A DNA stretch of 64,000 nucleotides from Verrucomicrobiaceae bacterium (GCA_027483175.1 JAIXVE010000265.1:6530-70529); one strand, 5' to 3'. Counted from the first letter of the stretch, positions 31,567 through 55,529 are shown. Program-made: numbers and translations. The notes: a model not told the origin generated them from the sequence alone.

Positions 31567-31585
31567 TTTCCCCTGATTCCCCATG
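31567..31585 (+). promoter_or_regulatory. Pyrimidine-rich translation-initiation leader TTTCCCCTGATTCCCC-ATG, shared with 48764-48788
   Basis: The string CCCCTGATTCCCC lies directly before the ATG of both the 3254 aa and the 2247 aa genes. No purine-rich SD is present. Confidence 0.35.
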
Positions 31586-34500
31586 CGTTCCTCCCTGTTG
31601 CTTGCGTTGCTGCTGCCTGCTGTGGCGATTCCTTTGTATGCCGTGCCGACGGCGGTGAATGACACGTTTACGACCCCGGAGGACACGGCGTTGTCTGGCG
31701 GGTCGGTGACGAATCCTCTGCTGGTGACGGATTTCGAGGCTGGGGGCGCCGGGTTCACGTTGCCGGGGACGTGGGATTATCTGGACACCCTGCTGACGAC
31801 GGCGGCTGGGGGTGCGAACACGTATCCGAGGGATGGGTCGAGTCGGGCGTGGAATGCGGTGGGGTTTGACAAGGCGAGTTCGACGGTGACGGGGTGGAAA
31901 TCGGCGGCGCTGCCGATTCAGGGGGGTGGGGTGGATGCGTTTGCGAATGCGCCGAATCTGCTGGGAGGGATCACGGGGAACAGCGGGGTGAACACGGTGA
32001 ACACGTATCTATTCCGGACGAGCTTCACGATGACGGGAGCGGAGGCGGCGCAGACGTGGAATGCGCGGGTCCTGGCGGACGACGGGTGCATCATTTATGT
32101 GAATGGGGTGGAGGCTGGTCGGTACAATTATCCCGGGAATGTGCCGGTGAATCCGGATGCGCTGGTGGGTGGGAATGGCGGGAGTGAGACGGCGTACACG
32201 ACGGTGCCGCTGACGGTGCCGTTTGCGGTCGGGGAGAATGTGATTGCGGTGGAGCTTCACCAGAACACGAATAACAGTTCGGATGCGGGGATTGATCTGA
32301 CGATTGCGTCGGCGAGTGCGGATCCGCTCCGTGGGATGGTGTATGCGGATGACATTGACGGGACGAACCGTCCTAACGTGGTGTCCGGGGTGCTGGATTC
32401 CGGGACGGGGAATCCGGGGTCGTCGGTGAACGTGTCGTTTTCGCGTGGGTTTGGGGGTGGCGGGAACGGGCCGAATATTTCGGGTGGGTGGCGCAGGACG
32501 ATTGAGGTGCCGGCGGCGGCGACCCTGACGATCAAGTGTGATGCGAGGGCGCGAGCGGTGAATGGATTGGAGGACAACGAGTATGCGGAGGCGATTGTGA
32601 TGCTGGACGGCGTGCGGTTGAGTTCCGGCGGGAGGAATTATCTGGTGAGGCAGGTGGGGGCGAATCCGGCGGGATCGGCTGGAGCGAACGGGAATGCGGA
32701 CAGCGGGTGGGGGACGTACACGATTGAGGTGCCGGTGACGGCGGGGTCGCACGTGGTGGCGTTTGGCGGGTTCGGGCCGCGGCCGAGTGGTGAGAATTTC
32801 GATGTGGATGAGGGCGGGATTGTGAATTTCGACAACATTGATGTGTCGGTGAAGGGGACGGGCGGGTCGCTGCTGGACAACGACACGGGCGGGGTGGCTC
32901 CGGTGACGGCGGTGAAGGTGACGGATCCTGCGAACGGGACCCTTGTGCTAGGGACGACGGGGACGTTCACGTACACGCCGAATGCGAACTGGTTCGGGAC
33001 GGATAGTTTCAGTTATCGGGCGGTGGATTCGACTGGGCAGTCGAATCCTGCGACGGTGACGGTGACGGTGACGCCGGTGAATGATGCGCCGGTGGGGGTG
33101 GCGGACAATTATGCGGTGACGCAGGGTGGGGTGCTGACGGTGCCGGTGGCGCAGGGTGTGCTGGTGAATGACAACGATGTGGACAATGCGGCAGCGACGC
33201 TGACGGCGGTGTCGGCGAGTACGCCGAGCAATGGGGCGGTGGTGCTGAATGCGAACGGGTCGTTCAGTTACACGCCGACGGCGCAGTTTTCGGGGGTGGC
33301 GACGTTTACGTACCGGGTGAGTGACGGGGCGCTGCAGTCGGCTCCGGTGACGGTGACGATTGCGGTGACGGACACGCCGGATGCGCCGGTGGCGGCGGGT
33401 GACAGTTACACGGCGGTGAGGAACACGCCATTGGTGGTGAGTGCGTTGGCTGGCGGGACGACGACGGAGGAACTGCTGCCGTACAAGGGACCTGACTGGC
33501 GGTATTTTGATTCGCTAGTGCTGGCGAGCCGGAATCTGGGGACGGCGTGGCGTGCGGAGGATTTTGTGGAGAACGGGGACTGGAAGACGGGAGCTGGGGA
33601 ATTGGGGTATGGGGACGGGGATGAGGCGACGGTGATCAACGACAATCCGGATCCGGCGTTCAATGCGGCGGCGGGGGACAAGTTTGCGACGTATTATTTC
33701 CGGAGGCCGCTGACGGTGGCGAATGCGTTCAACATCACGGGGGTGGAGGTGTCGGTGATTTACGATGATGCGGTGGCGTTTTACATCAACGGCGGGGCGG
33801 GGACGCGGACGAGCAACCTGCCGGATCTGGCGACGATGCCGGAGTTGGCGTGGGATTATTTCCCGACGACGAATGTGAACGACAATTCGACGCAGACGTT
33901 CACGCTGCCGGCTGGGACGTTTCGCGAGGGGGTGAATCTGCTGGCGGCGGAGGCGCACCAGAACGGGGCGAGTTCGAGTGACATCTCTTTTGACATGCGG
34001 GTTCGGGTGACGCGGGCGATTTCGGCCGGGGTGCTGGCGAATGATACGGATCCTGATCCGGGGGAGACGGCGACGCTGGTGGCGGAACTGGTGACTGGGC
34101 CTGCGCGTGGGAACGTGACCTTGAACAGCAATGGGACGTTTACGTACACGCCTGCGGCGGGTTTTACGGGAGCGGATTCGTTCACGTATCGGGCGCGAGA
34201 CACGAGTGGGCGGGTGTCGGCGGTGGCGACGGCGAGCATCACGGTGGTGACGGGGCCGAATGCGGCGCCGCTAGTGACGGCGGACAGTTATACGACTGCG
34301 GAGGACACGGTGCTGACGGTGACGGCTCCGGGCGTGCTGGCGAATGATGTGGATGGCGAGGGTGATGCGTTTACGGCGTCGGTGGTGACGCAACCGACGC
34401 GCGGGACGGTGGTGATGAATGCGAATGGCGGGTTTGTTTACACGCCGGCCGCGGACTTCAACGGGACGGATACGTTCACGTACCGGGCGACGGACACGCA

Positions 34501-37500
34501 ACCGTCTGCGCCTGCGACGGTGACGGTGACGGTGACGCCGGTGAATGATGCGCCGGTGGCGCGTGCGGACAGTTATGCTGGTGATCCGGGCGTGCCGCTG
34601 ACGATCGGGGCGTCGCAGGGGGTGTTGGCGAATGATACGGATGCGGATGCGGGGACGGTGCTGACAGCGAAGCTGGGGACGCCGCCGGTGGGTGCGACGG
34701 TGACCATGAATTCCGATGGATCGTTTGTGTTCAGCGCGCCGGTGGGCGGGGTGTATACCTTCACGTATCGGGCGCGGGATGAGGCATTGAGTTCGGGTCC
34801 GGTGACGGTGACGGTGTCGCTGAATGCCGCTCCGAGCGGGGTGGCGGATGCGTACAGTGTGGATGAGGACCGGACATTGACGGTGTCTGCGGCGCAGGGC
34901 GTGCTGGCGAACGATGTGGATCCGGAGGGACAGACGGTGACGGCGGTGCTGGTGACGGGCGCGGCGAGGGGGAGCCTGACGCTGAATGCGGATGGGTCCT
35001 TTGAGTACACACCGGCGGCTAACTTTGCGGGGAGTGACAGTTTCAGTTATCGGGCGTCTGATGGCGTGCGTCAGTCGGGTGTGGTGACGGTGGGGCTGAC
35101 GGTGAATGCGGTGAATGATGCGCCGGTGGCGGTGGCGGATGCCTATGGGGTGAAGTTGGACACGCCGCTGACAATTGCGGTGGCGAATGGGGTGTTGAGG
35201 AATGATACGGATGTTGAGGGTGGGGCGCTGACGGCGGTGCTGGTGGCCGCACCGGTGGAGGGGGCGCTGACGCTGCGGAGTGACGGGTCGTTTGATTATG
35301 TGCCGCCGACTGGGTATTCGGGGACGACGACGTTCAGTTACCGTGCGAGTGACGGGGCGCTGACGTCGGCGGTGACGGTGGTGACGCTGAATGTGACGGC
35401 GGATCTGAACACGGTGATGATCAGTGAGATCATGTACAATCCGCCGGGAGCTGCCGGGGTGTTTGAGGAGTTCATTGAGGTTTACAATTTCGGGGATGCG
35501 GCGGTGGATCTGACGGGATGGGAGTTCAGCAAGGGGGTGAACTATGTGTTTCCAGCGGGGCAGTTGCTGCCTGCGAAGGCGTCGCTGGCGGTGCCTGCGG
35601 ACAAGGCGGCATTCACGGCGAAGTATGGCGCTGGGGCGGCGGCGACGGCGACTGGGTGGGGGCCGTTGTCGCGGTTGAGCAACAGCGGGGAGATGATTCG
35701 GCTGAAGAATGCGCTAGGGGAGACGGTGGACGAGGTGGAGTATGCGGATTCCGGTGACTGGGCGGTGCGGAAGATTGTGGGTGTGTGGGATGCGACGAAC
35801 ACGCCTGGGCAGACCCCGGCGAATGGATTGGACACGGATCCTGGACTGGAGTGGGTGACGGCGGCGGATCCTGATCCGGAGATTGGGAATGCTGGCGGGT
35901 CGTCGATTCAGTTGATCAATCCTGCGCTTTCGAACAAGGCTGGGGTGAACTGGGCGGCGGCGGTGCCGACGCCTGGGGCTGCGAATGCGCTGGTGGCTCG
36001 TGCGAACAGTGCGCCGCTGATTCGGGATGTGGTGCATAGTCCGGCGGTGCCGAACCGGACCCAGCAGGTGACGGTGACGGCGCGGATCACGGATGAACTG
36101 ACGACGGGGATCAGTGCGTCGGTGTTCTTCCGTTCGTGGCTGCCGTCGGGGACGACGCCGGCGGTGGACTGGGATGAAGTGCTGCTGAAGGATGATGGGC
36201 GGAGTGGCGACGGGGTGGCGAACGATGGTATATACGGGGCGGTGCTTCCGGCGCAGGCGTTGAATACGGTGGTGGAGTTTTATGTGAGGGCGGCGGACAG
36301 TGTGGCGAATGTGCGTTCGTGGCCGCCGCCGACGCTGGATTTGAACGGGGCGAATCCGGTGCAGAATGCGAACTGCCTGTATCAGGTGAGTGAGGAGGCG
36401 TGGGCGGATGCGCGGCCGCTGTATCAGGTGGTGATGACTGGGGCGGACAATGCTTCGTGGAATGCTGGTTTGGCGAACCGGACGAGCAATGCGGCACCGA
36501 ACTGCACGGTGATTTTCCGTCAGGGCGGGGCGTTTGATGTGAGGTATCGCGGGAGCATCCGGACGCGGGGGAACAGTTCGCGGAGTGACACGCCGGTGAA
36601 TTTGAGGCTGGATGTGCCTGGTGACGCGTCATGGAACGGCAGGACGGCGTTCACGATGAACTACAAGTATGCGTACAGCCAGTTTCTGGGGAGTCGGCTG
36701 ATGGAGGCGGCGGGAGTGCCGTGTGAGAAGTCGAACGTGGTGGGGATGCGGATCAATGGGGTGAACCGGTTGCTGGATCAGAATGGGAACCGGACGTTTG
36801 GGTATTATTGTGATTTGATTCCGAGGGGCGGGGAGACGATTGACGAGTGGTTCCCGGGGAACAATGACGGGAACGGGTATGGGAAGATCCGCGGGAGTGT
36901 GCGGTGGGGGGTGTCGACGCTGCCGGTGATCGGGGCGAACGGGTGGGCTGAGGGCGGGTATGTGAATGAAGGGTGGTGGAAGCAGACGAATGCGGTGCAG
37001 AATGACTGGGCGGATCTGCATGCGTGGATCACGTCGATGAATGCGGGGACGGCGGACACCTTCCACGAGACGATCAAGAGCACGGTGGACATTGATGAAT
37101 GGTGCCGGTTCCTGGCGATTTCGACGATCATCAACCATGCGGAGACGAACATGGCGAATGGGGATGACGACGATTACTCGGTGTACTTCGGGATTGATGA
37201 CGATTTGTGCCGCCTCATTCCGCACGACATGGACACGTGTTTCAATCTGAACGCGATTGGTCTGGGTGATGAAGTGGCGCCGCCGACGGGGACGATTTAT
37301 CAGTGTACGCAGGCGAATTATCCTGGGGACAACGCGACCTTGCCGCAGATGGACAAGTTCTATCGGAATCCGGTGACGGGTCGGAAGTTCAAGGCGGCAT
37401 TGCGGCGGTATCTGGACACGCTTTTTGCGAAGCCTACGTTTGATGCCTACATTGACACGATGCTGGATGCGCCGTGGATGGGGACGCAGTTCACGCCGAA

Positions 37501-40500
37501 CGGGGATGCGATCCGGGCGCACATCAAAGCGTTCCTGGACACGCGGCGGACGACGATTGAGGCATTTCTGCCGACGGCGTTCACTGCTGGGACGACGCTA
37601 GCGTTGCAGAATGGCGTGCCGCGGACGACGACGGCGACGAATCTGGGGGATTTGGGAGGGAAGATTGATCCGGCGCGGACTGCGGAGGTGCGGGTGAATG
37701 GGATCAAGGTGACGACGAATCCGTATGGATCGACGGCGGCGGCTGACAATTCGTGGAGTGCGGGGACGGCGGTGACGCTGCAGCCGGGGTTGAACACGCT
37801 GGTGTGTACGGCGCATGATGAGGCCGGGAGTGTGTTTGCGAGTCAGACGGTGACGATCTGGTATGATTTGGCCGGGGTGAACCGCAGCGGGACGCTGGCG
37901 GGGAGTGAAACGTGGAGTCCGGCTGCTGGGCCGTACAATGTGACGGCGAACCTGACGGTCCCGAATGGTGCGGTGCTGACGATTCAGCCGGGGACGACGG
38001 TGTTTGTGGCGTCCGGGGCGTCGATCACGGTGAATGCGGGTGGCCGGATTGTGGCTGAGGGGACGGAGGCGGCTGGGATCACGATCGCGCGGATTCCGTC
38101 GGGGACGGGGAACTGGGGTGGGATTACGGTGAGCGGGGCGACGGCCGAGCCGTCGCGGTTCGGGTATCTGACGTTCAGCCAGAATGGGTCGACGGCGATT
38201 CATACGCAGAGCGGGGCGAATGTAGAGATTCACCATGTGACGTTCCTGAATCCAGCGGTGCAGTTCCTGTCGTTCGATGGGAGTTCGTTCCGGGTGAGTG
38301 ACTGTGTGTTCCCTGACAGTACGGCCGGATTTGAGCCGGTGCATGGGACCGGCGGGATTGCGGCGGGTGGTCGCGGGATTATTGAGCGGTGCCGGTTTGG
38401 GAAGACGCAGGGATACAATGATTCGGTTGATTTCACGGGCGGGAACCGGCCGGGGCCGATTCTGCATGTGCTGAACTGTGTGTTTACGGGATCGGACGAT
38501 GACATTCTGGATCTCGACAGCACGGATGCGTGGATTGAGGGGAACGTGTTCATGCATGCGCACCGGAACGGGGCGTCGCCTGACAGTTCGAGTGCGGTGT
38601 CGGGCGGGTCGGACAATGCGGATTACAGTCAGGTGACGGTGATCAACAATCTGATCTATGATTGTGACAATGCGATTACGATGAAGCAGGGCGGGCAGCC
38701 GCAGGGCGGGTCTGGCGTGCTGCTTTACAACACGATTGTGAGGACGACGAAGGTGGGTGGGATTGACGGAGGGTCGGGGATTGTGAACTTCGATGACGAA
38801 GGCGTGACTGGGGAAGGGAAAGGATTCTATCTGGAAGGGAATGTGATCTTTGATGCGGAGAATCTGGCGCGGAATTATGTGCCAGCGAACAGCCGCCTTG
38901 TGATGAATGGGAACTTCCTTCCGGTGGCACCGCCTGCTGGGGTGGAGGCGACGGGGAATGTGATCGGGGCGGACTTGAAGCTGAATCTTGGACTGATCAC
39001 GAATCCTGCGACGGCGACGGCTGAGCAGGTGGTGGCGGCATTGAGGCCGCAGTGGTGTTCGCCGGTGCTGGGGGCTGGGCCGATGGGTGGGAATGCGGGG
39101 GCGGATGTGGCGAAGACGGGGATTCGGGTACAGACCCCGCCGGGGAGTGTGTGGCCGGCGACGTTCACGATTGCGGCGGGGATTGGCGGGAGCTTCACGC
39201 CGACGGGGCAGCCTGCGTGGGCGTATGGGTTCAGCCATTACAAGTACCGGGTGGATGGGGGCGCGGAGAGTCCGGAGATTGCGGTGTCGGTGCCGGCGAC
39301 ATTGAGCGGGTTGAGTGCGGGTGCGCACGTGCTGACGGTGCTAGGGAAGCGTGATTCCGGGTTGTGGCAGGAAGTGCCGACGACGGTGGCGTTCACGGTG
39401 GTGGCGGGGATACCGACGGTGGTGCTGAGTGAAGTGCTGGCGGAGCCGGTGAGCGGGGTGGATTTCGTGGAGTTGCGGAACTGGGGGAGTGAGACGGCGG
39501 TGCTGGACGGTTGCGGGTTGACGGATGACACGGCGGTGCCGGGTCGGTTCACGTTCCCGGTGGGGACGGTGATTGCGCCGGGCGGGTATCTGGTGGTGGA
39601 TGCGACGCAGGCTGGGTTCGGGCTTGATGGTGGCGGTGAGACCGTGCGGTTCACGTCGGCTGGCGGGACGCTGATTGATGAAGTGGCGTTCGGGCCGCAG
39701 TTGAGTGGGAAGTCGGTGGCGCGTGTGGCTGGCGGGTGGCGTTTGTCGGAGCCGACGCCTGCGGCGGCGAACACGGCGGTGTGCGAGACGGGGACTGGGA
39801 GCGGGATCCGGATCAATGAGTGGCTGGGGTCTAACAGCATCATTGTGGCTGGGGACTTTGTGGAGTTGTACAATCCTGAGGCGCTGCCGGTGGACATTGG
39901 CGGGTGGCGGATGAGTCAGGATTACCGGAACGAGCCAGGGCAGAGTGTGTTTCCGCCGCTGAGTTTTGTGGGGGCGCGCGGCTTTCTGTCGCTGGTGGCG
40001 GATGGGAATGCGGCGGCTGGTGGCAATCATCTGGCGTTCAAGATTTCGAGGATTCGGGACACGATTGCGCTGCTGGATGGTGGCGCGGTGCCGGTGGATA
40101 TTGTGACGGTGTTGCCGGGGAATCCTGATGTGTCGCAGGGGCGGACGACGGATGGCGGGTTGACGATCGGGTATCTGCCGCTGCCGACGGCCGGGTTTTC
40201 GAATGGGAGCGATGTGAGTGCGGATGTGACGGTGATGAACGGGCTGCGGATTACGGAGCTGATGTTTGATCCGCCGTCGAGCAGTCAGGCTGAGTACGTT
40301 GAGTTCCGGAACATCACGGCGGTGCCGATGACGCTGACGGGCGTGCGGTTTGCGTCGGGGATTACGTTCACGTTCCCTGTGCTGACGGTGCCTGCGAACG
40401 GGTATGCGGTGATCACGCAGGATCTGGTGAAGTTTGCGGCGCAGTTTCCTGGGGTGAGTGCGGTGCAGTGGGCGGGCGGGCGATTGGACAACAATGGGGA

Positions 40501-41347: not shown

Positions 41348-41379
41348 GGTGGGGCTTCACTGAGAAGACATGAAGTGAT

Positions 41380-41415
41380 GGAGTCCGGAAGGGGGATTGA
41401 CCGCTTCCGGACTCC
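41380..41415 (+). terminator. Strong hairpin after the 3254 aa gene (possible terminator; no U-tract)
   Basis: A 12 bp stem GGAGTCCGGAAG/CTTCCGGACTCC has a 12 nt loop and is followed by GCATTAGGG, which is not T-rich. Confidence 0.4.
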
Positions 41416-41430
41416 GCATTAGGGCCAAGG

Positions 41431-43137: not shown

Positions 43138-43192
43138 AGGTTGGAATTTGTTTGTGCCGGGCGGGTGAATCCGGTTTCATGGGGATACCCCT

Positions 43193-46100: not shown

Positions 46101-48709
46101 ACATGAGCAACCATGCGGAGACGACGTTTGGATCGTCGCGGAGTGTGGTGAATGGGCGGACGTACCGGATTTCGTATCGTGCGAAGTGGATCAGCGGGTG
46201 CCGGCAGTTGAACACGAGACTGTACTTCAATCGATTGGCGAGGACGACGGTGCTGGACGGTCCGGGGGTGCAGATCGGGACGCCGGGGAGTGTGAACAGC
46301 AGGAGGGTGGCGAATGCGGGGCCTGTGTTTGCGGGATTGCGGCATGATCCAGCGGTGCCGGCGGCGTTCGGGACGGTGGCGGTGACGGTGCGTGCGGGTG
46401 ATCCTGACGGAGTTGGGCCGGTGGTGTTGTGGTCGCGGGTGGACGGCGGGGCGTGGGTGAGTCAGGCGATGGATCCGGTGGAGGGGGATGCGGGGAATTA
46501 CCGTGCGGTGCTGGCGGGGAGAGCGGCTGGGACGGTGGTGCAGTTTTATGTGGCGGCGACGGATGGGGCTGGTGCGACGGCGGTGTATCCGGCGGGGGGT
46601 GTGGATTCGCGGGCGATGTATGAGGTGAATGACGGGCTGGCGGCGACGAACGGGTTGCACAACATGCGGCTGGTGACGCTGAAGGCGGATGCGGACTGGA
46701 TGCACACGACGATCAATCTGATGAGCAATCAGCGGATCGGGGCGACGCTGGTGGTGGACGAGAAGGAAGTGATTTACGACATCGGGTTGAGGTTGAAGGG
46801 GAGCGAGCACAGCCGGACGACGAGTGCGCGGTTAGGGTTCAATCTGGGATTTGATTCGGAGCATCTGTTCCGCGGCGTGCATCGGAGTCTGGCGATTGAC
46901 CGGTCGGAGAGCACTGGGTTCGGGCAGCGGGAGATGCTGGCGCATCAGATGCTGAATCATGCGGGCGGGGTGCCGACAAAGTATCATGATCTGTGTCAGG
47001 TGATCGCGCCTCGATTGGAGCATACGGGGAGTGCGGAGCTGCAACTGGCGCGGTACACGGATGTGTTTCTGGATGATCAGTATGAGAACGGGAGTGACGG
47101 GATGTTGTTTGAGTATGAGCTGGTGTATCAGCTGAATTCGACGGACAACGGGACGCCGGAGGGGAACAAAGTGCCGGCACCGGATTCGGTGGTGGGAACG
47201 ACGATTCGGAACATGGGGGATGACAAGGAGCAGTACCGGTGGACTTATCTGATCAAGAACAACGAGGATCGGGATGATTACAGCCGGGTGATGGCGTGGG
47301 CGAAGTGGATGGCGACGACGGGGACGGCGTTCACGAGTCAGATTCCGGCGTTTCTTGAACCGGAGCAGTGGCTGCGGGGGCACGCGGTGAATGTGCTGAC
47401 GGGGGCTGGGGACAGTTATGGCGGGGACGGGGCGCAGCACAACGTGCAGTTCTATGTGCGGCCGACGGACGGGCGGATGCTGTATTTTCCGCATGACATG
47501 GATGCGTTCTACGATGCGAACCGGACGATTTATCCTAACGCGGATTTGAACAAGATACTGGCGGTTCCGGGGTATGCGCGGCTGTATTTCGGGCAACTGC
47601 TGGAGATTCTGGAGACGACGTACAATACGGGGTACATGCAGCGTTGGGCGGATCATTTCGGGCGATTGCTGCCGGCGCAGCCGTTTGCGAGTCATCTGAC
47701 GTTCATCGGGCAGAGAGCAACGGTGGTGCGGACGGCGGTGAATGCGGCGGTGTCGCCGAACACGCCGTTTGCGATCAGCACGAATGGGGGTGCGGACACG
47801 ACGGTGGCGACGGGGATGCTGAACCTGACGGGAACGGCGAACCTGAGTGTGCGGACGGTTCAGGTGAACGGGGTGAATTATCCGCTGACGTGGACATCGC
47901 GGACCGTGTGGTCGGTGGCGGTGCCGCTGCAGACGGGGGCGAATCTGCTGCGGGTGCAGGGGATTGACCGGTCGGGGAATGCGCTAGTTGCGGCGGTGGA
48001 TACGATCACGGTGACGAACACGGGGCCGCCGGGGAATCAGCCGGTGAGGATCAACGAGTGGATGGCGGACAACCGCGGGCCGGGCGGTTTTGCGGATCCT
48101 GCGGACGGGTTGTTCCAGGACTGGATTGAATTGTTCAACGGGAATGCAGATCCGGTGGATTTGTCAGGTTATCTGCTGAGTGACGATGCGGCGGCGCCTG
48201 GGAAGTGGGTGGTGCCGGCGGGGACGGTGATTCCGGCGCGCGGGTTTCTGATGATCTGGGCGGATGGGGTGACGGCGCAGAATACGCCGGGGAACGGGTT
48301 GCATGCTGGGTTTCAGCTGAGCAGTGCGGGGGAGTTTCTGGGCTTGTACAATGCGGCGGGGGTGGCGCAGCACACGCTGGTGTTCGGGGAGCAGCAGGTG
48401 AATGTGAGTCAGGGGTTGTTTCCGGATGGCAACGTGGGGGTTCCGGCGTATGCGATGCGGAATGCGACGCCGCGGTGGCCGAATACGCTGGCGGGGCCGC
48501 TGGAGGTGACTGGTTTCGGGCGGAATGGGTCGGTGAGCACCCTGACTTTCACGAGTCTGCCGGGGAGGAGTTACCGGGTGGAGTTTACTGATGGGGTGGG
48601 GCCGTGGACGGCGCTGGTTCCGGATGTGGCGGCGGTGGGTGACGTGTCGTCGGCGACGGATACGACGGGGAATGCGCGGCGGTTTTACCGGGTGCGGCGG
48701 GTGGAGTGA
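43193..48709 (+). CDS. Giant secreted 1838 aa protein: LTD, jelly-roll module split by a LamG domain, 2 LTDs, CBM-like domain, CotH, Ig-like domain, LTD and short C-terminal tail
   Basis: The signal peptide is MKSSALCAALTVLLPVMAAA. The LTDs are VVFNELQYHP..GEWIELHNQMAIDVDLSAW, INEIMYNGPP...EQWIELHNREAAAVAIGGW and RINEWMADN...QDWIELFNGNADPVDLSGY. LamG is SYWPFNGNA...LDDVAVWDQPLT. CotH is LRLKGSEHSR...YFPHDMDAFY. Confidence 0.9.
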   Translation: MKSSALCAALTVLLPVMAAAVDSVVVFNELQYHPVAGDAGGEWIELHNQMAIDVDLSAWRIEAGVSYVFPEGTVIAGGGYLVVAANPAGLQVAAGVTGVLGPLTGSLANAGERVELRDRNGRLMDRIDYRDSGEWPVAADGAGTTLAKREPGTTSGEPEHWTSGVVLGGTPGARNFPDTSTTIRPLVPINALWRYDASGTDRGAAWKEPGFDDGAWAGLNVAALVSYWPFNGNATAVRGTNGTPIGAATPGADRNGTAGQALVFNGTSQYISVVGGGGLNAAASGTIAMWARWNGSSQDADCCGTFGAITARQNNGVFSDTILALNGANPATARLVWRQSGGPAPILLTSTAAVGNGWRHVAVTFSPGGSTLYVDGVAQATATGSPMNNGSATPLSLGAWGGDGTGFMNGSLDDVAVWDQPLTAAQIAALAAGTKGPMDFANAESAVYFSGDGKLATSDELRKTALAGTPVTSYFRRAFDVTDPVSRMSLKLDLAVDDGAVVYLNGTEVYRHNLAAGAVGFGTLATAVVGDAPLLSGIDIPSGALVVGRNVLAVEVHQAAEVDGGMVFGAGLTGIVQAAGLAATVPNDLVINEVTAAGGPLRIELMNRGAGVVETAGYALVRTGSGVDLRYALPGQAIPAGGMVVVEAAAHGFPGLDGDRVFLIRESAGTVADAVVVESQGRARYPDGRGEFLTPTVFTPGASNVVVLQTGVVINEIMYNGPPVLEQPAAGGNPAVPFSRSVEQWIELHNREAAAVAIGGWAMDGGVRYQFPAGTVIPAGGYLVVARDPAALAVKFPGLVALGPFEGSLSGSGEEVVLRDGVGNPADEVHYYDDGAWPEAADGGGSSLELKDPRSDNNAGGSWAASDERSRSGWKTYSYTGVAAASQIGPDTQWREFVLGLMDKGEVLLDDISVVESPAGTPVEMLQNGSFGTDAARWRIIGNHSGTVVDDPDQVGNKVLRLVSTGSTDHMSNHAETTFGSSRSVVNGRTYRISYRAKWISGCRQLNTRLYFNRLARTTVLDGPGVQIGTPGSVNSRRVANAGPVFAGLRHDPAVPAAFGTVAVTVRAGDPDGVGPVVLWSRVDGGAWVSQAMDPVEGDAGNYRAVLAGRAAGTVVQFYVAATDGAGATAVYPAGGVDSRAMYEVNDGLAATNGLHNMRLVTLKADADWMHTTINLMSNQRIGATLVVDEKEVIYDIGLRLKGSEHSRTTSARLGFNLGFDSEHLFRGVHRSLAIDRSESTGFGQREMLAHQMLNHAGGVPTKYHDLCQVIAPRLEHTGSAELQLARYTDVFLDDQYENGSDGMLFEYELVYQLNSTDNGTPEGNKVPAPDSVVGTTIRNMGDDKEQYRWTYLIKNNEDRDDYSRVMAWAKWMATTGTAFTSQIPAFLEPEQWLRGHAVNVLTGAGDSYGGDGAQHNVQFYVRPTDGRMLYFPHDMDAFYDANRTIYPNADLNKILAVPGYARLYFGQLLEILETTYNTGYMQRWADHFGRLLPAQPFASHLTFIGQRATVVRTAVNAAVSPNTPFAISTNGGADTTVATGMLNLTGTANLSVRTVQVNGVNYPLTWTSRTVWSVAVPLQTGANLLRVQGIDRSGNALVAAVDTITVTNTGPPGNQPVRINEWMADNRGPGGFADPADGLFQDWIELFNGNADPVDLSGYLLSDDAAAPGKWVVPAGTVIPARGFLMIWADGVTAQNTPGNGLHAGFQLSSAGEFLGLYNAAGVAQHTLVFGEQQVNVSQGLFPDGNVGVPAYAMRNATPRWPNTLAGPLEVTGFGRNGSVSTLTFTSLPGRSYRVEFTDGVGPWTALVPDVAAVGDVSSATDTTGNARRFYRVRRVE
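46616..47740 (+). other. CotH domain of the 1838 aa protein
   Basis: IGLRLKGSEHSRTTSARLGFNLGF...REMLAHQMLNHAGGVP...HNVQFYVRPTDGRMLYFPHDMDAFY matches the family (HDMD at 47492-47503). Confidence 0.7.
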
Positions 48710-48763
48710 GGCGTGTTCAGGATAGTGGACAACGCGGGCGGGATCTGGTAAAGGGAGGGCAGA

Positions 48764-48788
48764 TTTTCTCCCCCCTGATTCCCCCATG
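48764..48788 (+). promoter_or_regulatory. Second copy of the pyrimidine-rich leader: TTTTCTCCCCCCTGATTCCCCC-ATG
   Basis: See 31567-31585. Confidence 0.35.
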
Positions 48789-51700
48789 AAGAAGAAATGG
48801 CTTTTTGTTTCCGGCGTGCTGCTGCTGACCGGGCTGTGCAGTCGTGGACCGATGGTGTCGCTGATGAGGCGGGTGGCGGCTGGTGATGGTGGGAAAGTGG
48901 TGGTGGCTGGGGAGACGGGAGTGGAGGGGCGAGCAGAGGCGGTGGCGGAGAAGGCGGCGGGAGGAGCTGCGGATTTCGGGGTGCGGGGGAAGGCGGAACG
49001 AGGCGAGGTGGATTTCGGGGCGCTGCATGCGTTCAGGGAGTGGGAGGGTCGGTATGTGGGGGCTGGGGTTGAGGAGAGGGCTGGGATGGTGGGTGAGGGA
49101 GTGCGGCTGGCGGCGGCGAGGCGGCCGGCGATGGAGCGATTGATTGTGACGAATCCGAGATTGGCGCTGGAGGTGGCGGTGCGTGCGGTGGTGCGGCAGG
49201 ATTTGCCGGAGGAAGTGAAGGAATTGCTGGAGAAGTCGGTGAGCGGGCGGGGGGATTACAAGGCGTACTTTGGTAGGCCAGTGGAGGGAGCGGTGGTGCC
49301 TGCGGGGACGGAATTGACGCTAAGGTATTTTGAGACACCGGAGGGGGACAGTTACCGGGCGCATGTGTTCGGGGAGATGGAGGAGGCGGTGAGTCGGCGC
49401 GGGGTGGCGATGAGGGGCGTGGCGATCGGGCGTGAGATGGCGGTGGCGGAGAGTCCGGTGCGGCAGATGGAGGCGGGGGAACGGATCGCGGCGGGGACGC
49501 CGGTGGACGAGACGTGTCCGGTTTCGGGGACGGTGACGCCGACGACGACTGAGGAGACGTTAGTGGTGGAGCCGGAGGTGCCGCTGGTGGAGGTGGCGGG
49601 TCGCGTGATCCGGTTGTGCAACGGGACGCACGTGACGGTGTTTGAGGAAGCGCAGCGTTGGGCGAGCGGCGGGCCGGGCGGCGCGGGGTATTTCTATGAC
49701 AACTATCCGGGGACGTCGTCTGAGGCGATCGGGAACTTCCGGTGTCTGTACATCCGGGTGACGTATCCTGACCAGATGCGGGCACCGAACACGGAAGCGC
49801 GGGCGTGGAGCGACATGCAGAATGTGTCGCGGTTTTATCTGGAGTCGTCGTACGGGAAGCTGACAACGACGTCGGTGGTGACGCCATTGATTGTGATGCC
49901 GCACAGCAAGGCGTGGTACATTGCGAAGGACAGCGAGGTGGATGGACTGGGGCTGGTGCACAGCGATGCGCGGGCGATGGCGCGGCGGATGGGTTATGAC
50001 AGCAGCCAGTTCAACTGCACGATTGTGCGGGTGAACGAGGGGCCGCGGCTGAGCGGGATTTCGTGGGGTGGCGGGGACAGTGTGTGGGTTTCGTGGGACG
50101 GGATGGATGTACTGAATCACGAGTGCGGGCATTCGCTAGGGAGGAACCATGCGAATTTCTGGAAGACGAGTGACGGGTCGGCGATCGGGGTGGGGGAGAA
50201 CCAGGAGTATGGGAACAGTTATGATGTGATGGGTGGCGGTGGCGGGTTCGGGGCGCATTACAACAGTTACAGCAAGCGGTCGCTGGGTTGGCTACAGGAT
50301 CCGTATGTGCACCGACCGGGGACGACTGCGGCCTACAATGGGGTGTATCGGATTCACGCGTATGACCAGCCGAGGATCGAGGAAGGGAAGCGTTATTCGC
50401 TGCGATTGGACAAGGACGTGCAGCGGCGGTTTTATCTGGAGTATCATCCGGCGATTGGGGGTAGTTGGCCGGATCAGTTGCTGCTGATGATGAGCGGACT
50501 GGGGAGCAATGCGGGGCATCTGGTGGATACGACGCCTGGGAGTGCGGGAGGGAAGGGTGACGGTGGGATCCAGGTGGGAAGGACGTTCAGTGATTTTGAG
50601 AGTGATCTGCATTTCACGGTGCTGGGGAAGGCTGGGACGGTGCCGGAGGCGCTGGATGTGGCGGTGATGCGCGGGCCGTTTCCGGGGAATCGGGCTCCGG
50701 TGGTGACGCTGAATGCGACGGCGACGCAGGTGGCGGTGAACGGGAGTGCGACGTTCACGGCGAGTGCGAGTGATCCTGACGGCGATACCCTTGCGTATCA
50801 CTGGGATTTCAATGACGGGTATGCGGCGCCGAACAGTGCTAGTGTGACACGGGTGTTTCCGACGACCGATCAGCAGACGGTGTCGCTGACGGTTTCGGAT
50901 CTGAAGGGAGGGACGGTGCGGGCGCACACGGTGATCACGATTGGGAGTCCGGGGCGAGCGGTGGCGCGGGGGACGATAACGATTGGCGGGCGGCCTCTGG
51001 CGGGGGTTCGAGTGACGAGTGATACGGACAAGTATTGTTTTACGGACAGCAATGGGGGGTATGCGCTGGCGGATCTGCAGAGCGGGACGCGGACTCTGAG
51101 TGCGATGCTGACGGGGTATACGTTCACGGCTGGGTTTACGAATCCCGCGAGTGTGCCGACGGCTGGATTGACGGGATTGAACTGGACGGCGACGAGTGTT
51201 CCGGAGGTGGTGATGACGGCGGTGGATGCGGCTGAGGGTGGGGCGAACGGGTCGTTTGTGCTGACGCGGAGCGGGGATGTGACGGCGGCGATGGATGTGA
51301 CAGTGGCTCCGGCGGGTGGGTCTGCGGTGAAGACGACGGATTACAGTTTTGCGCCGGATTATGCGGCGAGCGGGACGATGAACACGTTTACGATTCCTGC
51401 GGGGCAGGCGAGCCTGACGGTGACGGTGGCGGCGGTGAATGACACGGCGCAGGAAGGGCCGGAGACGGTGACCCTGCAGTTGGGAGCGGGGGCTGGGTAT
51501 CAGGTGCGGAGCAGCGGGGTGGCGATGCTGACGATTGCGGACAATGACACGACGCGGCCGGTGGTGAGTCTGGCGGCGACGGATGTGTATGCGGGTGAGG
51601 GGTCGGGAGATGCCGGGGCGTTCACGGTGAGCCGGACTGGGGCGACGGGATCGCCGCTGACGGTTGCGCTGGCGTTCAGCGGGACGGCGACGAACGGGGT

Positions 51701-54700
51701 GGATTGCGGGATGGTGCCTGGGACGGTGACGATTCCTGCGGGGCAGAGTTCGGTGGTGGTGCCATTGGTGGTGACGGATGACAGCGTGATGGAAGCGCCG
51801 GAGGATGCGATCCTGACAGTTAGTGCGAATGCGGCGTATGTGGTGAGTCCGGTGGCGGCGAGCGGGACGGTGACGATTACGGACAATGACCTGCCGGTGG
51901 TGTCGGTGACGGCGATTGATGATGTGTTGAATGAGGCGGGGAGGGGGACCGGGGTGGTGCTGGTGACGCGGCGGGGGAGTCTGAGCGGGACGTTGAAGGT
52001 GTATTATGGCGTGGGGGGCCGGGCGCTGCATGGGACGGATTATGTGGCGCTGCCTGGTGAAGTGACGTTTCCTGTGGGTGTGGACACGGTGCCGGTGGTG
52101 CTGACGCCTTATGACGACGGGCATGGGGAGGGAGACGAAGGGATCGCGTTTGCGCTGACGGTGTTTGACAATGCGTACACGCTGGGGGCGAATTTTTCGG
52201 CGGCGCTGACGATCAAGGACAATGCGGATGCGCCATTGGTGGGGGTGACGGCGAACTCGGCGGGCGAGCCGAGCACGAACGGGACGTTTACGGTGACGGC
52301 GGTGGGGACGGCACCGGGGAACATTACGGTAAGGTACACGATCAGCGGGACGGCGACGGCGGGGCAGGATTTCACGATGCCGTCGGGCACGGTGACGGTT
52401 GCGGGGACGAGTACGGATGTGAAGGGGAATGCGGCGACGGTGACGATCCCGGTTTTGAACGATGCGTTGCCGGAGAACACGGAGACGGTGATTCTGACGA
52501 TCACGCCGGATCCTGCGTACCGGGTGTACTTGGACGGGCAGGCGGTGATGCGATTGAAGGATGACGAAGCGGAGCCGGTGGCGGTGAGCACGCACAGCAG
52601 CGGGTTGGCGGAGCCGGCGGATGGGAGTTCGTTTTACATTTCGAGGGCTGGGACGACGGGTGCGCTGGCGGTGGGGTATACGATGAGCGGGACGGCGGTG
52701 AACGGGACGGACTATCAGCTATTGACCGGCAGCGCGGTGATTCCTGACGGGGCGAGCGGGGTGGATGTGACGGTGACGCCGCTGGATGATGCGTTGCGGG
52801 AGGGGACGGAGACTGTGGTGATGCGGCTGGCGGGCGGGGCGGGATACGGCGTGGAAGTTGCGGAAGCGACCCTGCTGCTGGAGGACAATGATCTGGCGAG
52901 CACCCTGCCGTCGATGGGTTTTGTGTCGGCGACGGGGACGACGGGAGAGTTGCCGGATGCGGTGATGGGGGAGTATCGTGACATTGAGGTGACGCTGCCG
53001 TCGGCGATGAGCGGGACGGTGACGGTGGATTATGTGATGAGGGGCGGGACGGCGACTGGGGATGATGTGGACTGGCGGTTTGCGGATGCGGCGGCGGGGA
53101 ATGCGATGATTCCGGGTGGGACCCTGACATTTCCGCCGGGGGTGACCTCGCGGAAGCTGCGCGTGCGGATTGTGAATGACGGCGTGGTGGAGGGGAATGA
53201 GACGGCGATCATTGATCTGGTGAATCTGAACGCGGGCGGGAGCGGCGTGCGGCTGAGTGGGACGAGGTACCGGCATACGCTGACGATCAATGACAACACG
53301 GCGGCGAATCCGGTGCCGCGGGTGAGTTTTCTGATGTCGGCGACGACGCGGCAGGAGGCTGACGGAGGCGAGCCGCTGCTGATGGCGGCGCTGGACGCGC
53401 CAGCGGGCGGGACGGTGACGGTGCAATTCACGGTGAGCGGGACGGCGACGCGCGGGAGTGATTTCAATCTGAATCCGGGGACCCTGACATTTGCTCCCGG
53501 GGAGATGTTCAAGAAACTGCCGATGGTGATTCTGGCGGATGGAGTGTCGGAACTGGCGGAGACGGCGGTGGTGACCCTTGTGAATCCGACCGGGGCGCAA
53601 CTGGGGACGATTCCGACGCACACGGTGACGATCACGGATGCGTCGGCGGCGGCGGTGTCCGTGGCGGCGGTGGTGGGGACGGTGGAGGAAGACAGCAGCG
53701 GGAGCGGCGTGTTTGCGGTGACGCGGAGTGGCGGGGTGTTGAATCTGCCACTGACAGTTAGTGTGGCGGTGAGCGGGACTGCGGTGGCTGGCGAGGATTA
53801 TGCGGGATTGCCGGCGAGCGTGACGATTCCGGCGGGGCAGACGACGGCGACCCTGAGTGTGGCTCCGGTGCGGGACACTGTGGAGGAAGCGGATGAGACC
53901 GTGGTGGTGACGGTGGTGGATGCGGCGGATTACGATCTGGGGTCGGTGGCTGAGGCGGTGGTGACGATTCTGGATGACGATGCGCCGCCGGTGGTGACCC
54001 TGGTGTGGCCGAGTACGGCGACGGCGGCGATTCCGGCGGGGGTGGGAATGATTGCGGAGGTGGAGGCGACGCGGGAGTTGCCGAGCGGGACGGTGCATCC
54101 GGCGGTGGTGTGGAGTCAGGTGTCTGGGCCTGGGTCGGCGGTGATTGAGACGCCTGGGTTGCGGCGGACGGCGGTGAGTTTTCCGGTGAATGGCGTGTAC
54201 GTGCTGCGGGCGAGTGCGACGCACGGGACGACGACGTCGGCGGATTTGACCGTGCAGGTGGCACCTGCTCCGGTGGTGCCGAATTTCAGTGTGGCGCGGT
54301 TCGGGAATGCGCCAGCGACGACTGGGTTTACGGCTGGGGGTGTGGCGGGGTCGTACAACGTGACGGCAGGCGGGGCGAGCATCGCGAGCACGGGGACGGC
54401 GGATCAGTTTGTGTTTGTGCAGCAGGCAATGACCGGGGATGCGACGCTGGTGGCGCGGGTGGTGAGCATGGGGACGGGCGGGAGTTCGACGTCGGACAAC
54501 CGTGCGGGGCTGATGATCAGAGAGAGTGTTAGCGACGGCGGGTCGCGGCATGCGTTCATCGGGATCACGAAGACACCGGCGACGAGGTTCATCAGTCGGG
54601 CGGCGACTGGGGCGGCGAGTACGAATACGACGGGGACGGGAGCGTTTCCGTGCTGGGTGCGGCTGGTGAGGAGTGGCAATGTGTTTACGGGGGAGACGGC

Positions 54701-55529
54701 TCCTGACAATGGGGGTGTGCCGGGTGTGTGGACGACGGTGGGGACGCAGACGGTGGCGATGAATGCGGCGGCGTTTGCGGGAATTGCGGCGTCGAGCGGG
54801 AGCACTGGCGGCGGGTCGCTGGCGGCGGTGGTGGTGGACAATGTGAGGATACTGAATCACGGGCCGGTGGCGAATCTGGGGCCGGCGGTGGATGCGGGGG
54901 CGGCGCTGAGTGGTGGCGGGCCGTGGATGCTGGATGCGACGGTGGTGGATGACGGGCAGCCGGCTCCGTCGGTGCTGACGATGCATTGGCAGTCGGTGAG
55001 CGGGCCGGGGGTTCCGGTGTTTGCGAATGGGACGTCGACGGATACGGCGGTGACGTTTCCGGTGAGTGGTCGTTATGGATTGCGGCTGACGGCGAGTGAC
55101 GGGCAGGTGATGACGTTTGACGATGCGGTGGCGGACGTGGCGCTGCCGACGCCGTATGACAGCTGGCGGTTGGCGCAGTTTGGGGCGGAGTCGGGCAATC
55201 CGGTGGTGGCGGGTGAGCTAGCGGATCCGGATAGGGATGGCGTGGCGAACCTGCTGGAGTATGCGTTTGCGACCGATCCGCGGCGTGCTGGAGGAGCTGC
55301 GATGACGGCTGCAGATGTGGACGAAGGCTTGCTGGCGGTTGATTACCGGATCAATCTGGATGCGACTGACGTGGTGGCTGCGGTGCAGTGGAGTGCGGAT
55401 CTTGGCACGTGGAGCGACGCCCCGGCGACGGTGACGGTGCTAGGGGAATCGGGCCGGGTGCGGACGGTGCGCGCGACCGTGCCGGCCGATGGAGTGCGGC
55501 GGTTCCTGAGGGTGAAGGTGAGTCGCTGA
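48786..55529 (+). CDS. Giant secreted 2247 aa protein: metzincin-type zinc protease, PKD, CarboxypepD_reg-like domain, 8 Calx-beta repeats, Ig/PKD-like domain, ConA-like domain, PKD-like domain, TSP3-like motif and C-terminal tail
   Basis: The N-terminus is MKKKWLFVSGVLLLTGLCS. Motifs are HECGHSLGRNH (HExxHxxGxxH), SDPDGDTLAYHWDFNDG, and the repeated ...G.A..G.DY......V.(I/F)PAG......V.V...D...E..E... units. It is a single ORF. Confidence 0.9.
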   Translation: MKKKWLFVSGVLLLTGLCSRGPMVSLMRRVAAGDGGKVVVAGETGVEGRAEAVAEKAAGGAADFGVRGKAERGEVDFGALHAFREWEGRYVGAGVEERAGMVGEGVRLAAARRPAMERLIVTNPRLALEVAVRAVVRQDLPEEVKELLEKSVSGRGDYKAYFGRPVEGAVVPAGTELTLRYFETPEGDSYRAHVFGEMEEAVSRRGVAMRGVAIGREMAVAESPVRQMEAGERIAAGTPVDETCPVSGTVTPTTTEETLVVEPEVPLVEVAGRVIRLCNGTHVTVFEEAQRWASGGPGGAGYFYDNYPGTSSEAIGNFRCLYIRVTYPDQMRAPNTEARAWSDMQNVSRFYLESSYGKLTTTSVVTPLIVMPHSKAWYIAKDSEVDGLGLVHSDARAMARRMGYDSSQFNCTIVRVNEGPRLSGISWGGGDSVWVSWDGMDVLNHECGHSLGRNHANFWKTSDGSAIGVGENQEYGNSYDVMGGGGGFGAHYNSYSKRSLGWLQDPYVHRPGTTAAYNGVYRIHAYDQPRIEEGKRYSLRLDKDVQRRFYLEYHPAIGGSWPDQLLLMMSGLGSNAGHLVDTTPGSAGGKGDGGIQVGRTFSDFESDLHFTVLGKAGTVPEALDVAVMRGPFPGNRAPVVTLNATATQVAVNGSATFTASASDPDGDTLAYHWDFNDGYAAPNSASVTRVFPTTDQQTVSLTVSDLKGGTVRAHTVITIGSPGRAVARGTITIGGRPLAGVRVTSDTDKYCFTDSNGGYALADLQSGTRTLSAMLTGYTFTAGFTNPASVPTAGLTGLNWTATSVPEVVMTAVDAAEGGANGSFVLTRSGDVTAAMDVTVAPAGGSAVKTTDYSFAPDYAASGTMNTFTIPAGQASLTVTVAAVNDTAQEGPETVTLQLGAGAGYQVRSSGVAMLTIADNDTTRPVVSLAATDVYAGEGSGDAGAFTVSRTGATGSPLTVALAFSGTATNGVDCGMVPGTVTIPAGQSSVVVPLVVTDDSVMEAPEDAILTVSANAAYVVSPVAASGTVTITDNDLPVVSVTAIDDVLNEAGRGTGVVLVTRRGSLSGTLKVYYGVGGRALHGTDYVALPGEVTFPVGVDTVPVVLTPYDDGHGEGDEGIAFALTVFDNAYTLGANFSAALTIKDNADAPLVGVTANSAGEPSTNGTFTVTAVGTAPGNITVRYTISGTATAGQDFTMPSGTVTVAGTSTDVKGNAATVTIPVLNDALPENTETVILTITPDPAYRVYLDGQAVMRLKDDEAEPVAVSTHSSGLAEPADGSSFYISRAGTTGALAVGYTMSGTAVNGTDYQLLTGSAVIPDGASGVDVTVTPLDDALREGTETVVMRLAGGAGYGVEVAEATLLLEDNDLASTLPSMGFVSATGTTGELPDAVMGEYRDIEVTLPSAMSGTVTVDYVMRGGTATGDDVDWRFADAAAGNAMIPGGTLTFPPGVTSRKLRVRIVNDGVVEGNETAIIDLVNLNAGGSGVRLSGTRYRHTLTINDNTAANPVPRVSFLMSATTRQEADGGEPLLMAALDAPAGGTVTVQFTVSGTATRGSDFNLNPGTLTFAPGEMFKKLPMVILADGVSELAETAVVTLVNPTGAQLGTIPTHTVTITDASAAAVSVAAVVGTVEEDSSGSGVFAVTRSGGVLNLPLTVSVAVSGTAVAGEDYAGLPASVTIPAGQTTATLSVAPVRDTVEEADETVVVTVVDAADYDLGSVAEAVVTILDDDAPPVVTLVWPSTATAAIPAGVGMIAEVEATRELPSGTVHPAVVWSQVSGPGSAVIETPGLRRTAVSFPVNGVYVLRASATHGTTTSADLTVQVAPAPVVPNFSVARFGNAPATTGFTAGGVAGSYNVTAGGASIASTGTADQFVFVQQAMTGDATLVARVVSMGTGGSSTSDNRAGLMIRESVSDGGSRHAFIGITKTPATRFISRAATGAASTNTTGTGAFPCWVRLVRSGNVFTGETAPDNGGVPGVWTTVGTQTVAMNAAAFAGIAASSGSTGGGSLAAVVVDNVRILNHGPVANLGPAVDAGAALSGGGPWMLDATVVDDGQPAPSVLTMHWQSVSGPGVPVFANGTSTDTAVTFPVSGRYGLRLTASDGQVMTFDDAVADVALPTPYDSWRLAQFGAESGNPVVAGELADPDRDGVANLLEYAFATDPRRAGGAAMTAADVDEGLLAVDYRINLDATDVVAAVQWSADLGTWSDAPATVTVLGESGRVRTVRATVPADGVRRFLRVKVSR
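50118..50150 (+). other. Metzincin zinc-binding signature HExxHxxGxxH
   Basis: Codons 445-455 read H-E-C-G-H-S-L-G-R-N-H. Confidence 0.75.
51205..53985 (+). repeat. Eight tandem Calx-beta-like repeats (roughly 105-125 aa each)
   Basis: Each unit contains a (T/S)G(T/S)A..G.D(Y/F) segment, a (I/F)P.G segment, a ...D...E..E... segment, and ends in ...(I/L).D(N/D)(D/E). Confidence 0.75.

Follow-up and report, generated by a model that had tools for sequence, protein, structure and literature searches.

Do giant genes that stand side by side on one bacterial strand encode the parts of a single extracellular system, or are they neighbors by descent? This question is raised by a 64,000-nucleotide stretch of DNA from Verrucomicrobiaceae bacterium (called the window throughout), in which three giant genes, designated A, B, and C, lie together with an araB gene on the + strand. 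The original prediction, made from the sequence alone, described three of four consecutive same-strand genes as giants of 3254, 1838, and 2247 amino acids (aa) and proposed that they form one extracellular kinase, protease, and adhesin system. The sizes are exactly those of the open reading frame (ORF) listing, in which gene A occupies positions 31583..41347 (3254 aa), araB, the fourth gene, 41431..43137 (568 aa), gene B 43193..48709 (1838 aa), and gene C 48786..55529 (2247 aa), in this order and on the + strand throughout. The proposal of a single system does not survive comparison with related genomes, in which the adjacency of the three giants is not conserved. We think it probable that A, B, and C are separate giant genes for secreted or cell-surface multi-domain proteins, and that they are adjacent through the history of their lineage and not through joint function. 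An extracellular location of all three proteins is plausible. As stated, this is an ordinary finding, since giant secreted multi-domain genes are abundant in the Planctomycetes-Verrucomicrobia-Chlamydiae (PVC) group and proteins that join lamin-tail domains (LTDs) to a CotH domain are already annotated; giant genes as a feature of PVC genomes are attributed to Reva and Tummler (2008) as cited in PMC6461901.

Linkage of A, B, and C across related genomes

Parts of A, B, araB, and C were searched by tblastn against all loci that carry a C-like gene (designated by the letter L and a number), and a locus was counted as informative when it offered at least 6 kb of sequence upstream of the C-like gene. 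By this definition, 49 loci are informative, and an upstream CotH gene was found in four of them (L010, L014, L016, and L021), of which L010 has the order A-araB-C. Six metagenomic contexts of C-like genes agree with this result, as an LTD-CotH neighbor is found only on the contig that is identical to L016.

The closest relatives of the locus, L008, L009, and L010, share 92-93% nucleotide identity with it, and each stands for a separate species in the genome collection. C comes immediately after araB in L008 and L010, so that A-araB-C has been kept and B has been deleted. The 190-nt spacer in these two relatives consists of the leader and first codons of B, a jump at the 9-mer TGCGCGGCG, and the last codons and stop codon of B. 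In the window, the 5' copy of this 9-bp microhomology lies at 43211..43219 (+ strand), where it spans codons 7-9 of B and marks the left breakpoint in L008 and L010, and the 3' copy lies at 48673..48681 (+ strand), near the stop codon of B, and marks the right breakpoint. The deletion between the two copies of TGCGCGGCG amounts to 5462 bp. The scar that it left is found at positions 9760-10020 of L010 and 326-584 of L008 and retains the leader, the first ~9 codons, and the last ~12 codons of B; in the L010 scar, the start codon of B is already ACG. Since the 9-mer is present at both breakpoints, we attribute the loss of B in these two relatives to a microhomology-mediated deletion. The L009 contig begins within the 3' end of B, which indicates that at least part of B is retained there. 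Given that B has been deleted where A and C were kept, B is dispensable in those species.

At lower identity, the genes around the orthologues of A and B are different ones. In L089, a PNPOx-like gene comes after an orthologue of A with 74% identity, and MFS and sulfatase-maturase-like genes come before it; the C-like gene of this metagenome-assembled genome (MAG) lies among other, unrelated genes on a separate contig (L082), where the 6.9 kb upstream contain no CotH gene. An orthologue of A with 50% identity (L090) has yet other neighbors, and an orthologue of B with 58-64% identity (L088) is not followed by a C-like gene. Beyond the nearest relatives, the adjacency of the three genes is not conserved. 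The giants themselves are found at similar lengths in independent assemblies, with A-like orthologues of 3271, 3295, and 3329 aa and a B-like orthologue of 1888 aa. The low frequency of linkage, the deletion of B, and the unrelated neighbors of the orthologues together indicate that the block is not a conserved system. The three-gene arrangement is lineage-specific, and at most B-type genes are loosely and dispensably associated with C-type genes.

The block is also interrupted. The product of araB matches the Pfam models FGGY_N and FGGY_C and is identified as L-ribulokinase by NCBIfam model NF003154 (666 bits against a cut-off of 428); it is a cytoplasmic kinase of sugar catabolism that is functionally unrelated to the giants. 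Between the stop codon of A and araB lies a GC-rich hairpin (41380..41415, + strand) with a perfect 12-bp stem, GGAGTCCGGAAG-N12-CTTCCGGACTCC, and a folding free energy of -38.6 kcal/mol (z -4.6; none of 200 shuffled sequences was equally stable). The hairpin resembles a terminator without a T tract, and its position 3' of A argues for a separate A transcript without proving it. A scan for consensus sigma-70 promoters and terminators returned fewer matches than in shuffled sequence and is uninformative here.

Domains and putative active sites of the giants

Gene B encodes, from N- to C-terminus, a Sec-like signal, an LTD, a LamG domain, two LTDs, a carbohydrate-binding module (CBM)-like domain, an Ig-like domain, a canonical CotH domain, a beta-sandwich, an LTD, and a C-terminal module. 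The N-terminus looks by eye like a classical Sec signal (MKSSALCAALTVLLPVMAAA/V). In Pfam, B has four LTD stretches (PF00932, E 1e-54), a Laminin_G_3 match (E 9e-21), and a faint CBM_4_9 match. Its CotH domain (PF08757) scores 24.9 bits in the whole protein and 26.6 bits as a segment, against a cut-off of 23.8. The Ig-like domain, CotH kinase-like domain, and beta-sandwich together span aa ~1045-1610 (46325..48022, + strand), as placed by profile and structural model.

Searching the Protein Data Bank (PDB) with the CotH sequence of B alone yielded nothing meaningful, and both a profile and a structure prediction were needed. Residues 1001-1620 of B were aligned with their relatives (40 sequences), and the resulting profile matches Bacillus cereus CotH (5JD9) with an E-value of 3.6e-9. 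The AlphaFold2 model of this region is confident, with a mean predicted local distance difference test (pLDDT) score of 88.8 and a predicted template-modeling (TM) score of 0.84, and its best PDB match by Foldseek is again 5JD9 (E 2.2e-12, TM 0.74, 401 columns). In the model, the Ig-like domain precedes the kinase fold and a CBM56/Fn3-like sandwich follows it. Residues D1407, H1416-N1417, and D1435-x-D1437 of B align with the Bacillus catalytic loop NFD-GFVHN...PWDYD and are conserved in 39-40 of the 40 relatives. The substitutions D228Q and D251A render B. subtilis CotH catalytically dead (PMC7821199); with a constant shift of +4 relative to B. cereus residue numbers, D1407 and D1435 of B would correspond to these two residues. 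The profile match, the confident model with 5JD9 as its best match, and the conserved loop residues all identify B as a bona fide member of the CotH family with an intact catalytic loop. B thus shares the atypical kinase fold and the D, HN, and DxD loop residues of Bacillus CotH (5JD9/5JDA) and differs from it in build, as Bacillus CotH is a single domain of ~360 aa, whereas B is an 1838-aa protein with a Sec signal and LTD, LamG, CBM-like, and Ig-like modules. The substrates of the Bacillus enzyme are CotB and CotG, and its site of action is the cytoplasm of the mother cell (PMC7821199).

Gene A encodes a Sec-like signal, a jelly-roll-like N-terminal region, seven to eight tandem-95/cadherin-like repeats, an LTD, a variant CotH region, a beta-helix, three LTDs, a PKD domain, and a C-terminal module. 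Its N-terminus, like that of B, has the look of a classical Sec signal (MRSSLLLALLLPAVAIPLYA/V). The seven to eight cadherin-like/Big_9 repeats recognized by Pfam at aa ~421-1270 correspond to the tandem-95 repeat of NCBIfam (NF012211, E 4e-120), and Pfam also reports four LTD stretches (PF00932, E 4e-53) and a PKD match. The prediction of four LTDs and a CotH domain in each of A and B is therefore upheld, the CotH match of A scoring 34.3 bits in the whole protein and 41.4 bits as a segment. Among the predicted accessory modules, the LamG domain and the cadherin-like repeats are borne out, the Beta_helix match of A falls marginally below threshold (25.7 bits against a Pfam cut-off of 25.9), and the jelly-roll-like region (aa 21-420) has no profile match in Pfam or NCBIfam.

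The CotH-like region of A covers aa 1461-2092 (35963..37858, + strand), with the Pfam core at aa 1800-1960. A single-sequence PDB search with this region gave nothing meaningful; by BLASTP, it is 23% identical to the CotH region of B over 665 columns (E 5e-18). At the catalytic-loop positions (37142-37234, + strand; aa 1854-1884), A departs from both B and Bacillus CotH: the catalytic Asp is replaced by E1854 and the His-Asn pair by D1863-D1864, while D1882-x-D1884 is retained, so that A does not possess the canonical set of CotH catalytic residues. Across 144 aligned relatives, the five residues are found in 143 (E), 143 (D), 144 (D), 144 (D), and 143 (D) sequences. Since the variant loop is close to invariant, it is not a product of decay, and the alignment identifies the CotH domain of A as a member of a large sister subfamily with a conserved variant active site. 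In an exhaustive HMMER search, this A-type CotH domain was found in 1990 representative clusters at E <=1e-3 and in 511 at E <=1e-30, most of whose members are proteins of 2000-5000 aa. As judged from the residues themselves, the E/DD substitutions are chemically conservative, in that they would preserve a carboxylate base and a metal-binding carboxylate. Among giant proteins, at least two classes of CotH domain can be distinguished, each with its own strictly conserved active site; this distinction provides mutagenesis targets for defining the role of secreted bacterial CotH.

Downstream of the CotH region, A contains a right-handed beta-helix (aa ~2101-2500; 37883..39082, + strand; Pfam Beta_helix) that is strongly conserved among A-type giants. 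Numerous Asp, His, and Asn residues in it are invariant, as are motifs such as GYND..DFTGGNR, DDILDLD.TDAWIEGN.F.H.H, and YDCD. No NCBIfam or Pfam model matches aa 2100-2620 at threshold. The sole PDB match of a profile built from nine homologues is a local one of 39 residues to the PL6 alginate lyase 7O84 (E 5e-6). A match of this length does not justify an enzymatic assignment, and we rejected the identification of the beta-helix as an alginate lyase, although it may be a second catalytic module.

The architecture shared by A and B is that of proteins that NCBI annotates as "CotH kinase family protein" or "lamin tail domain-containing protein," from which we find no essential difference. A and B are further members of this widespread, functionally uncharacterized class, and B has close homologues in Planctomycetota, Myxococcota, Verrucomicrobiota, Actinomycetota, and candidate phyla. 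As the original prediction had supposed, we found no functional study of LTD-CotH giants in PVC bacteria in the searchable literature, and the only relevant item that a literature search for CotH together with Verrucomicrobia or Planctomycetes returned is a study of diversity-generating retroelements that mentions CotH-like targets in phages. The literature on LTDs suggests that they may associate with membranes or polymers. ExeM of Shewanella, an extracellular nuclease with an LTD, resembles B in being secreted and in having an N-terminal LTD beside its signal peptide; however, ExeM combines a single LTD with nuclease domains, whereas A and B each contain four LTDs and lack nuclease domains. 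The LTD of ExeM is dispensable for the degradation of extracellular DNA (PMC6085458).

Gene C differs from A and B in both architecture and putative chemistry. It encodes an N-terminal hydrophobic segment, a helical and beta N-domain, a metzincin-like catalytic domain, a PKD domain, a CarboxypepD_reg domain, seven to eight Calx-beta repeats, two PKD-like (K319L-PKD) domains, and a C-terminal module. The prediction of Sec signals in all three giants therefore applies less clearly to C than to A and B: its hydrophobic segment is followed, by eye, by a low-complexity linker and may be either a signal peptide or a signal anchor. A lipoprotein signal (LLLTGLC) was considered and rejected, as position -1 is Leu. 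The Calx-beta array spans aa ~824-1645 (51255..53720, + strand). Of the eight Calx-beta repeats originally predicted, seven are significant (PF03160, E 1.6e-56 overall), and the eighth, at aa ~824-921, is marginal (E 0.008). Pfam also recognizes the PKD, CarboxypepD_reg, and K319L-PKD domains and has no match within residues 1-635.

The catalytic domain (aa ~315-520; 49728..50345, + strand) was located by its zinc motif and by Foldseek. The motif, HECGHSLGRNH, lies at aa 445-455 (nt 50118-50150, + strand) and confirms the predicted HExxHxxGxxH pattern. Homologues conserve HE-x-GH-xx-G-x-x-H-A-N-x-W and a downstream D[VI]MG, and the zinc motif is kept in all homologues that cover it except one frameshifted sequence. 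The candidate Met-turn, DVMG, lies at aa ~479-482, about 26 residues past H455, in a part of the model (452-492) where pLDDT is below 50. The model of the N-terminal region, which was built from 21 sequences and has a mean pLDDT of 68.6, is good for the helical bundle (77-145), the beta domain, and the catalytic core and poor at 452-492. All of its significant Foldseek matches are metzincins, namely CpaA (6O38), ADAMTS-4, -1, and -5, fragilysin, InhA2, adamalysins, and MMP-13. Their probabilities range from 0.9 to 1.0 and their E-values from 8e-5 to 1e-2, and their TM scores are at most 0.46; given the pLDDT of the model and these TM scores, the support is moderate. None of the curated peptidase models in Pfam or NCBIfam reaches its threshold on C: the M6 domain model TIGR03296 reaches 34 bits where 110.8 are required, and Reprolysin_4 scores 13.9 bits (E 0.042) against a cut-off of 22. 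Against PDB sequences, a single-sequence search with the N-terminus of C found nothing meaningful, and the family profile matches the PKD part only. The metzincin identity of C is thus based on its zinc motif and fold match and not on any peptidase model, and these point to a predicted metzincin-type zinc endopeptidase whose catalytic family lacks a curated model.

M6 peptidases carry the motif HExxHxxGxxD. C has a third His where M6 has Asp, and its similarity to TIGR03296 is weak. With the metzincins as a whole (adamalysin/ADAMTS M12B, fragilysin M10, InhA M6, and CpaA), C shares HExxHxxGxxH, a downstream Met segment, and the fold, and it differs from them in that its catalytic family is restricted to Verrucomicrobiota.

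A scan of one genome per GTDB species with a profile of the C N-terminal family detected at least 90 loci, 80 of which were kept. This overturned the impression, given by 20 matches in a first homologue search, that the catalytic family is rare. C-like giants are present in at least 80 species-level genomes, nearly all of which are titled Verrucomicrobiota and belong mainly to Verrucomicrobiales; carriers include Verrucomicrobiaceae, Akkermansiaceae, Luteolibacter, Haloferula, Prosthecobacter, and Chthoniobacter. Complete C-like ORFs of 2182-3901 aa occur in more than 50 genomes, a few shorter and apparently frameshifted ORFs having been set aside, and throughout the family the catalytic domain forms part of a fusion with PKD, CarboxypepD_reg, and long Calx-beta (or Calx-beta/PA14) arrays. 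C is therefore a conserved giant in its own right, at the core of a giant-protein family restricted to Verrucomicrobiota. NCBI labels its homologues "PKD domain-containing protein," and their recognition as metzincin-type proteases with an unmodeled catalytic family is a useful outcome of this analysis. Among the carriers are the environmental MAGs L013, L019, L026, L047, L056, L063, and L067, several of which are titled 'Akkermansia muciniphila' and one 'Enterobacteriaceae'; these titles look like taxonomic mislabels.

The shared C-terminal module and the relation among the giants

A, B, and C all end in a similar module of ~70 residues, located on the + strand at 41126..41344 in A (aa 3182-3254, ending QRYLRLKVIQP), 48521..48706 in B (aa 1777-1838, ending RRFYRVRRVE), and 55353..55526 in C (aa 2190-2247, ending RRFLRVKVSR). 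The module is also found at 4605-4830 (- strand) in a 1327-aa C-type-lectin/PA14 protein (4605-8588) and at 11140-11364 (+ strand) in an 855-aa protein (8800-11367), so that five window proteins of unrelated architecture carry it. Its consensus ends in ...[RK][FY][LYFW]R[VL]..., and a thrombospondin type 3 (TSP3)-like Ca2+ motif often stands just before it; in A and C, this motif takes the form DPD(K/R)DG..NL.E(F/Y)A. A hidden Markov model built from the five window copies and iterated over the window and 1.4 Mb of related loci identifies 54 copies, 49 of which end within 8 residues of a stop codon. Neither Pfam nor NCBIfam has a model for the module. PEP-CTERM was rejected as an identity for these C-termini, which have no PEP motif and no terminal membrane helix. 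Since the module is strictly C-terminal and widely shared, it suggests an export, anchoring, or sorting tag, by analogy with such tags, and may mark a common sorting route. A common tag would make the giants fellow cargo and not partners.

A bolder reading of these data is possible but doubtful. It joins two claims: that the giants are cargo of a single undescribed export or anchoring route of Verrucomicrobiota that is defined by this module (...RRF[YLF]R[VL][KR]V), and that the A-type CotH domain (E/DD) together with the beta-helix constitutes a distinct class of extracellular enzyme whose chemistry is unlike the phosphorylation of protein Ser or Thr.

The explanation that we favor, separate giants that are neighbors by lineage history, can be framed as follows. 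Each protein combines a Sec-type N-terminus, many binding modules (Ig, cadherin, LTD, LamG, CBM, PKD, and Calx-beta types), and one or two putative catalytic modules. After Sec export, A, B, and C would be displayed on the cell envelope or released from it, and the C-terminal module probably tags all three for export, anchoring, or sorting. The repeat arrays (Ca2+-binding Calx-beta, TSP3-like, and cadherin-like) would form Ca2+-stiffened stalks that may also bind polymers such as glycans or matrix. C would cleave extracellular proteins, and B, and perhaps A, would transfer a phosphoryl or other nucleotide-derived group to extracellular substrates. Each catalytic module would act on extracellular polymeric substrates independently of the other two giants. 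None of these features is specific to this locus; the protease family, the two CotH classes, and the module all extend well beyond it.

Several points weigh against this explanation, and they concern both its chemistry and the independence of the genes. No source of ATP is known to exist outside the cytoplasm of a diderm bacterium. This gap in the supply of a donor keeps alive the alternative that the CotH domains bind without catalyzing, in which case A and B would be pure adhesins or matrix proteins and C alone would be catalytic. The CotH invasins of Mucorales have been proposed to play such a binding or adhesin role. Binding modules do dominate A and B, and A is without the canonical catalytic Asp and HN pair. 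Against this stand B, which retains every canonical loop residue at near-invariant positions, and the conservative E/DD set of A, whose near-complete invariance among its relatives suggests selection on an active or metal-binding site. We therefore consider a wholly non-enzymatic role for the CotH domains unlikely.

The remaining points concern linkage. In L014, L016, and L021, a B-like LTD-CotH gene (38% identical to B and co-linear with it) lies directly upstream of the C-like gene, and this recurrence in three genomes exceeds random expectation and may reflect a loose, dispensable association. The gaps between the four genes of the window are short (83, 55, and 76 nt) and all four are on the same strand, which leaves room for read-through transcription across A-araB-B-C. 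The leaders of A and C carry an identical 13-nt motif that could place the two genes under common regulation. These features, along with the C-terminal module common to all three, are what would be expected if the block were one co-expressed extracellular apparatus in which LTD-CotH kinases and a Calx-beta metzincin cooperate on a surface or matrix, for example if a kinase modified the protease, the substrates of the protease, or a shared glycan or protein matrix. A comparable idea is the 'planctosome' of freshwater Planctomycetes, a purely computational proposal (Andrei et al. 2019; PMC6461901) in which peptidases are anchored at the outer membrane by a giant LTD protein with a signal peptide. 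The planctosome, however, relies on cohesin-dockerin pairs and P-domains, none of which we found here, and the linkage of A, B, and C is not conserved. In 45 of the 49 informative loci, the C-like gene has no upstream CotH gene; B has been deleted in two of the three closest relatives, which kept A and C; and distant orthologues of A and B have other neighbors. The block is broken by an unrelated cytoplasmic gene and a strong hairpin, and the C-terminal module is also present on unrelated proteins elsewhere in the window. Given these findings, we judge a cooperating apparatus to be quite improbable.

That the giant ORFs are assembly artefacts or chance frames is scarcely credible, because, even though the high G+C content and skew of this DNA produce many long spurious ORFs on the opposite strand, profile matches span the full length of each giant ORF, dozens of independent assemblies contain co-linear orthologues of equal size, and the codon-position composition is typical of coding sequence.

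Flanking genes, leader motif, and GC skew

The genes that flank the giants in the window include mnmA, yebC, an HD-domain gene, a GSDH-cytochrome c gene, rsmH, and a PSD/PSCyt and DUF1552 pair, a set that places the window in the PVC group. The host is a freshwater bacterium of the order Verrucomicrobiales. The PSD/PSCyt (DUF1592 etc.) and DUF1552 (HXXSHH) genes lie at 60376-63791, ~5 kb downstream of C. A DUF1552 gene also lies just upstream of the C-like gene in L001 (8347-9708) and L004 (3630-8015), and PSD genes are present in L004 as well. PSD/PSCyt-DUF1552 pairs are very common among PVC genomes, so their nearness to C-like genes may be due to chance.

The leader motif shared by A and C is the C-rich 13-mer CCCCTGATTCCCC. 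It occurs in exactly two copies in the window, each of which precedes the ATG of a giant gene: the first (31570..31582, + strand) directly abuts the ATG of A, and the second (48772..48784, + strand) stops 1 nt short of the ATG of C. Both copies sit within similar leaders of ~24 nt. The motif could be a translation-initiation or regulatory element. The homologous genes in L003 and L006 also have C-rich tracts before their ATG, despite a very G-rich strand.

The window has an extreme GC skew, with (G-C)/(G+C) ranging from +0.26 to +0.43 in every 2-kb bin, for which we found no precedent in the literature. In + strand genes, the skew at third codon positions lies between +0.62 and +0.72, and in - strand genes whose products are confirmed by Pfam it lies between -0.60 and -0.79; the exception is an unconfirmed ORF with a value of -0.30. 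Since the third-codon skew tracks the DNA strand, it reflects a strand bias that is independent of gene orientation. The median absolute skew over all fetched Verrucomicrobiota loci is 0.03, although a few loci reach ~0.2. The three closest relatives, L008, L009, and L010, which were assembled independently, share the skew of the window, with values of +0.37 to +0.39.

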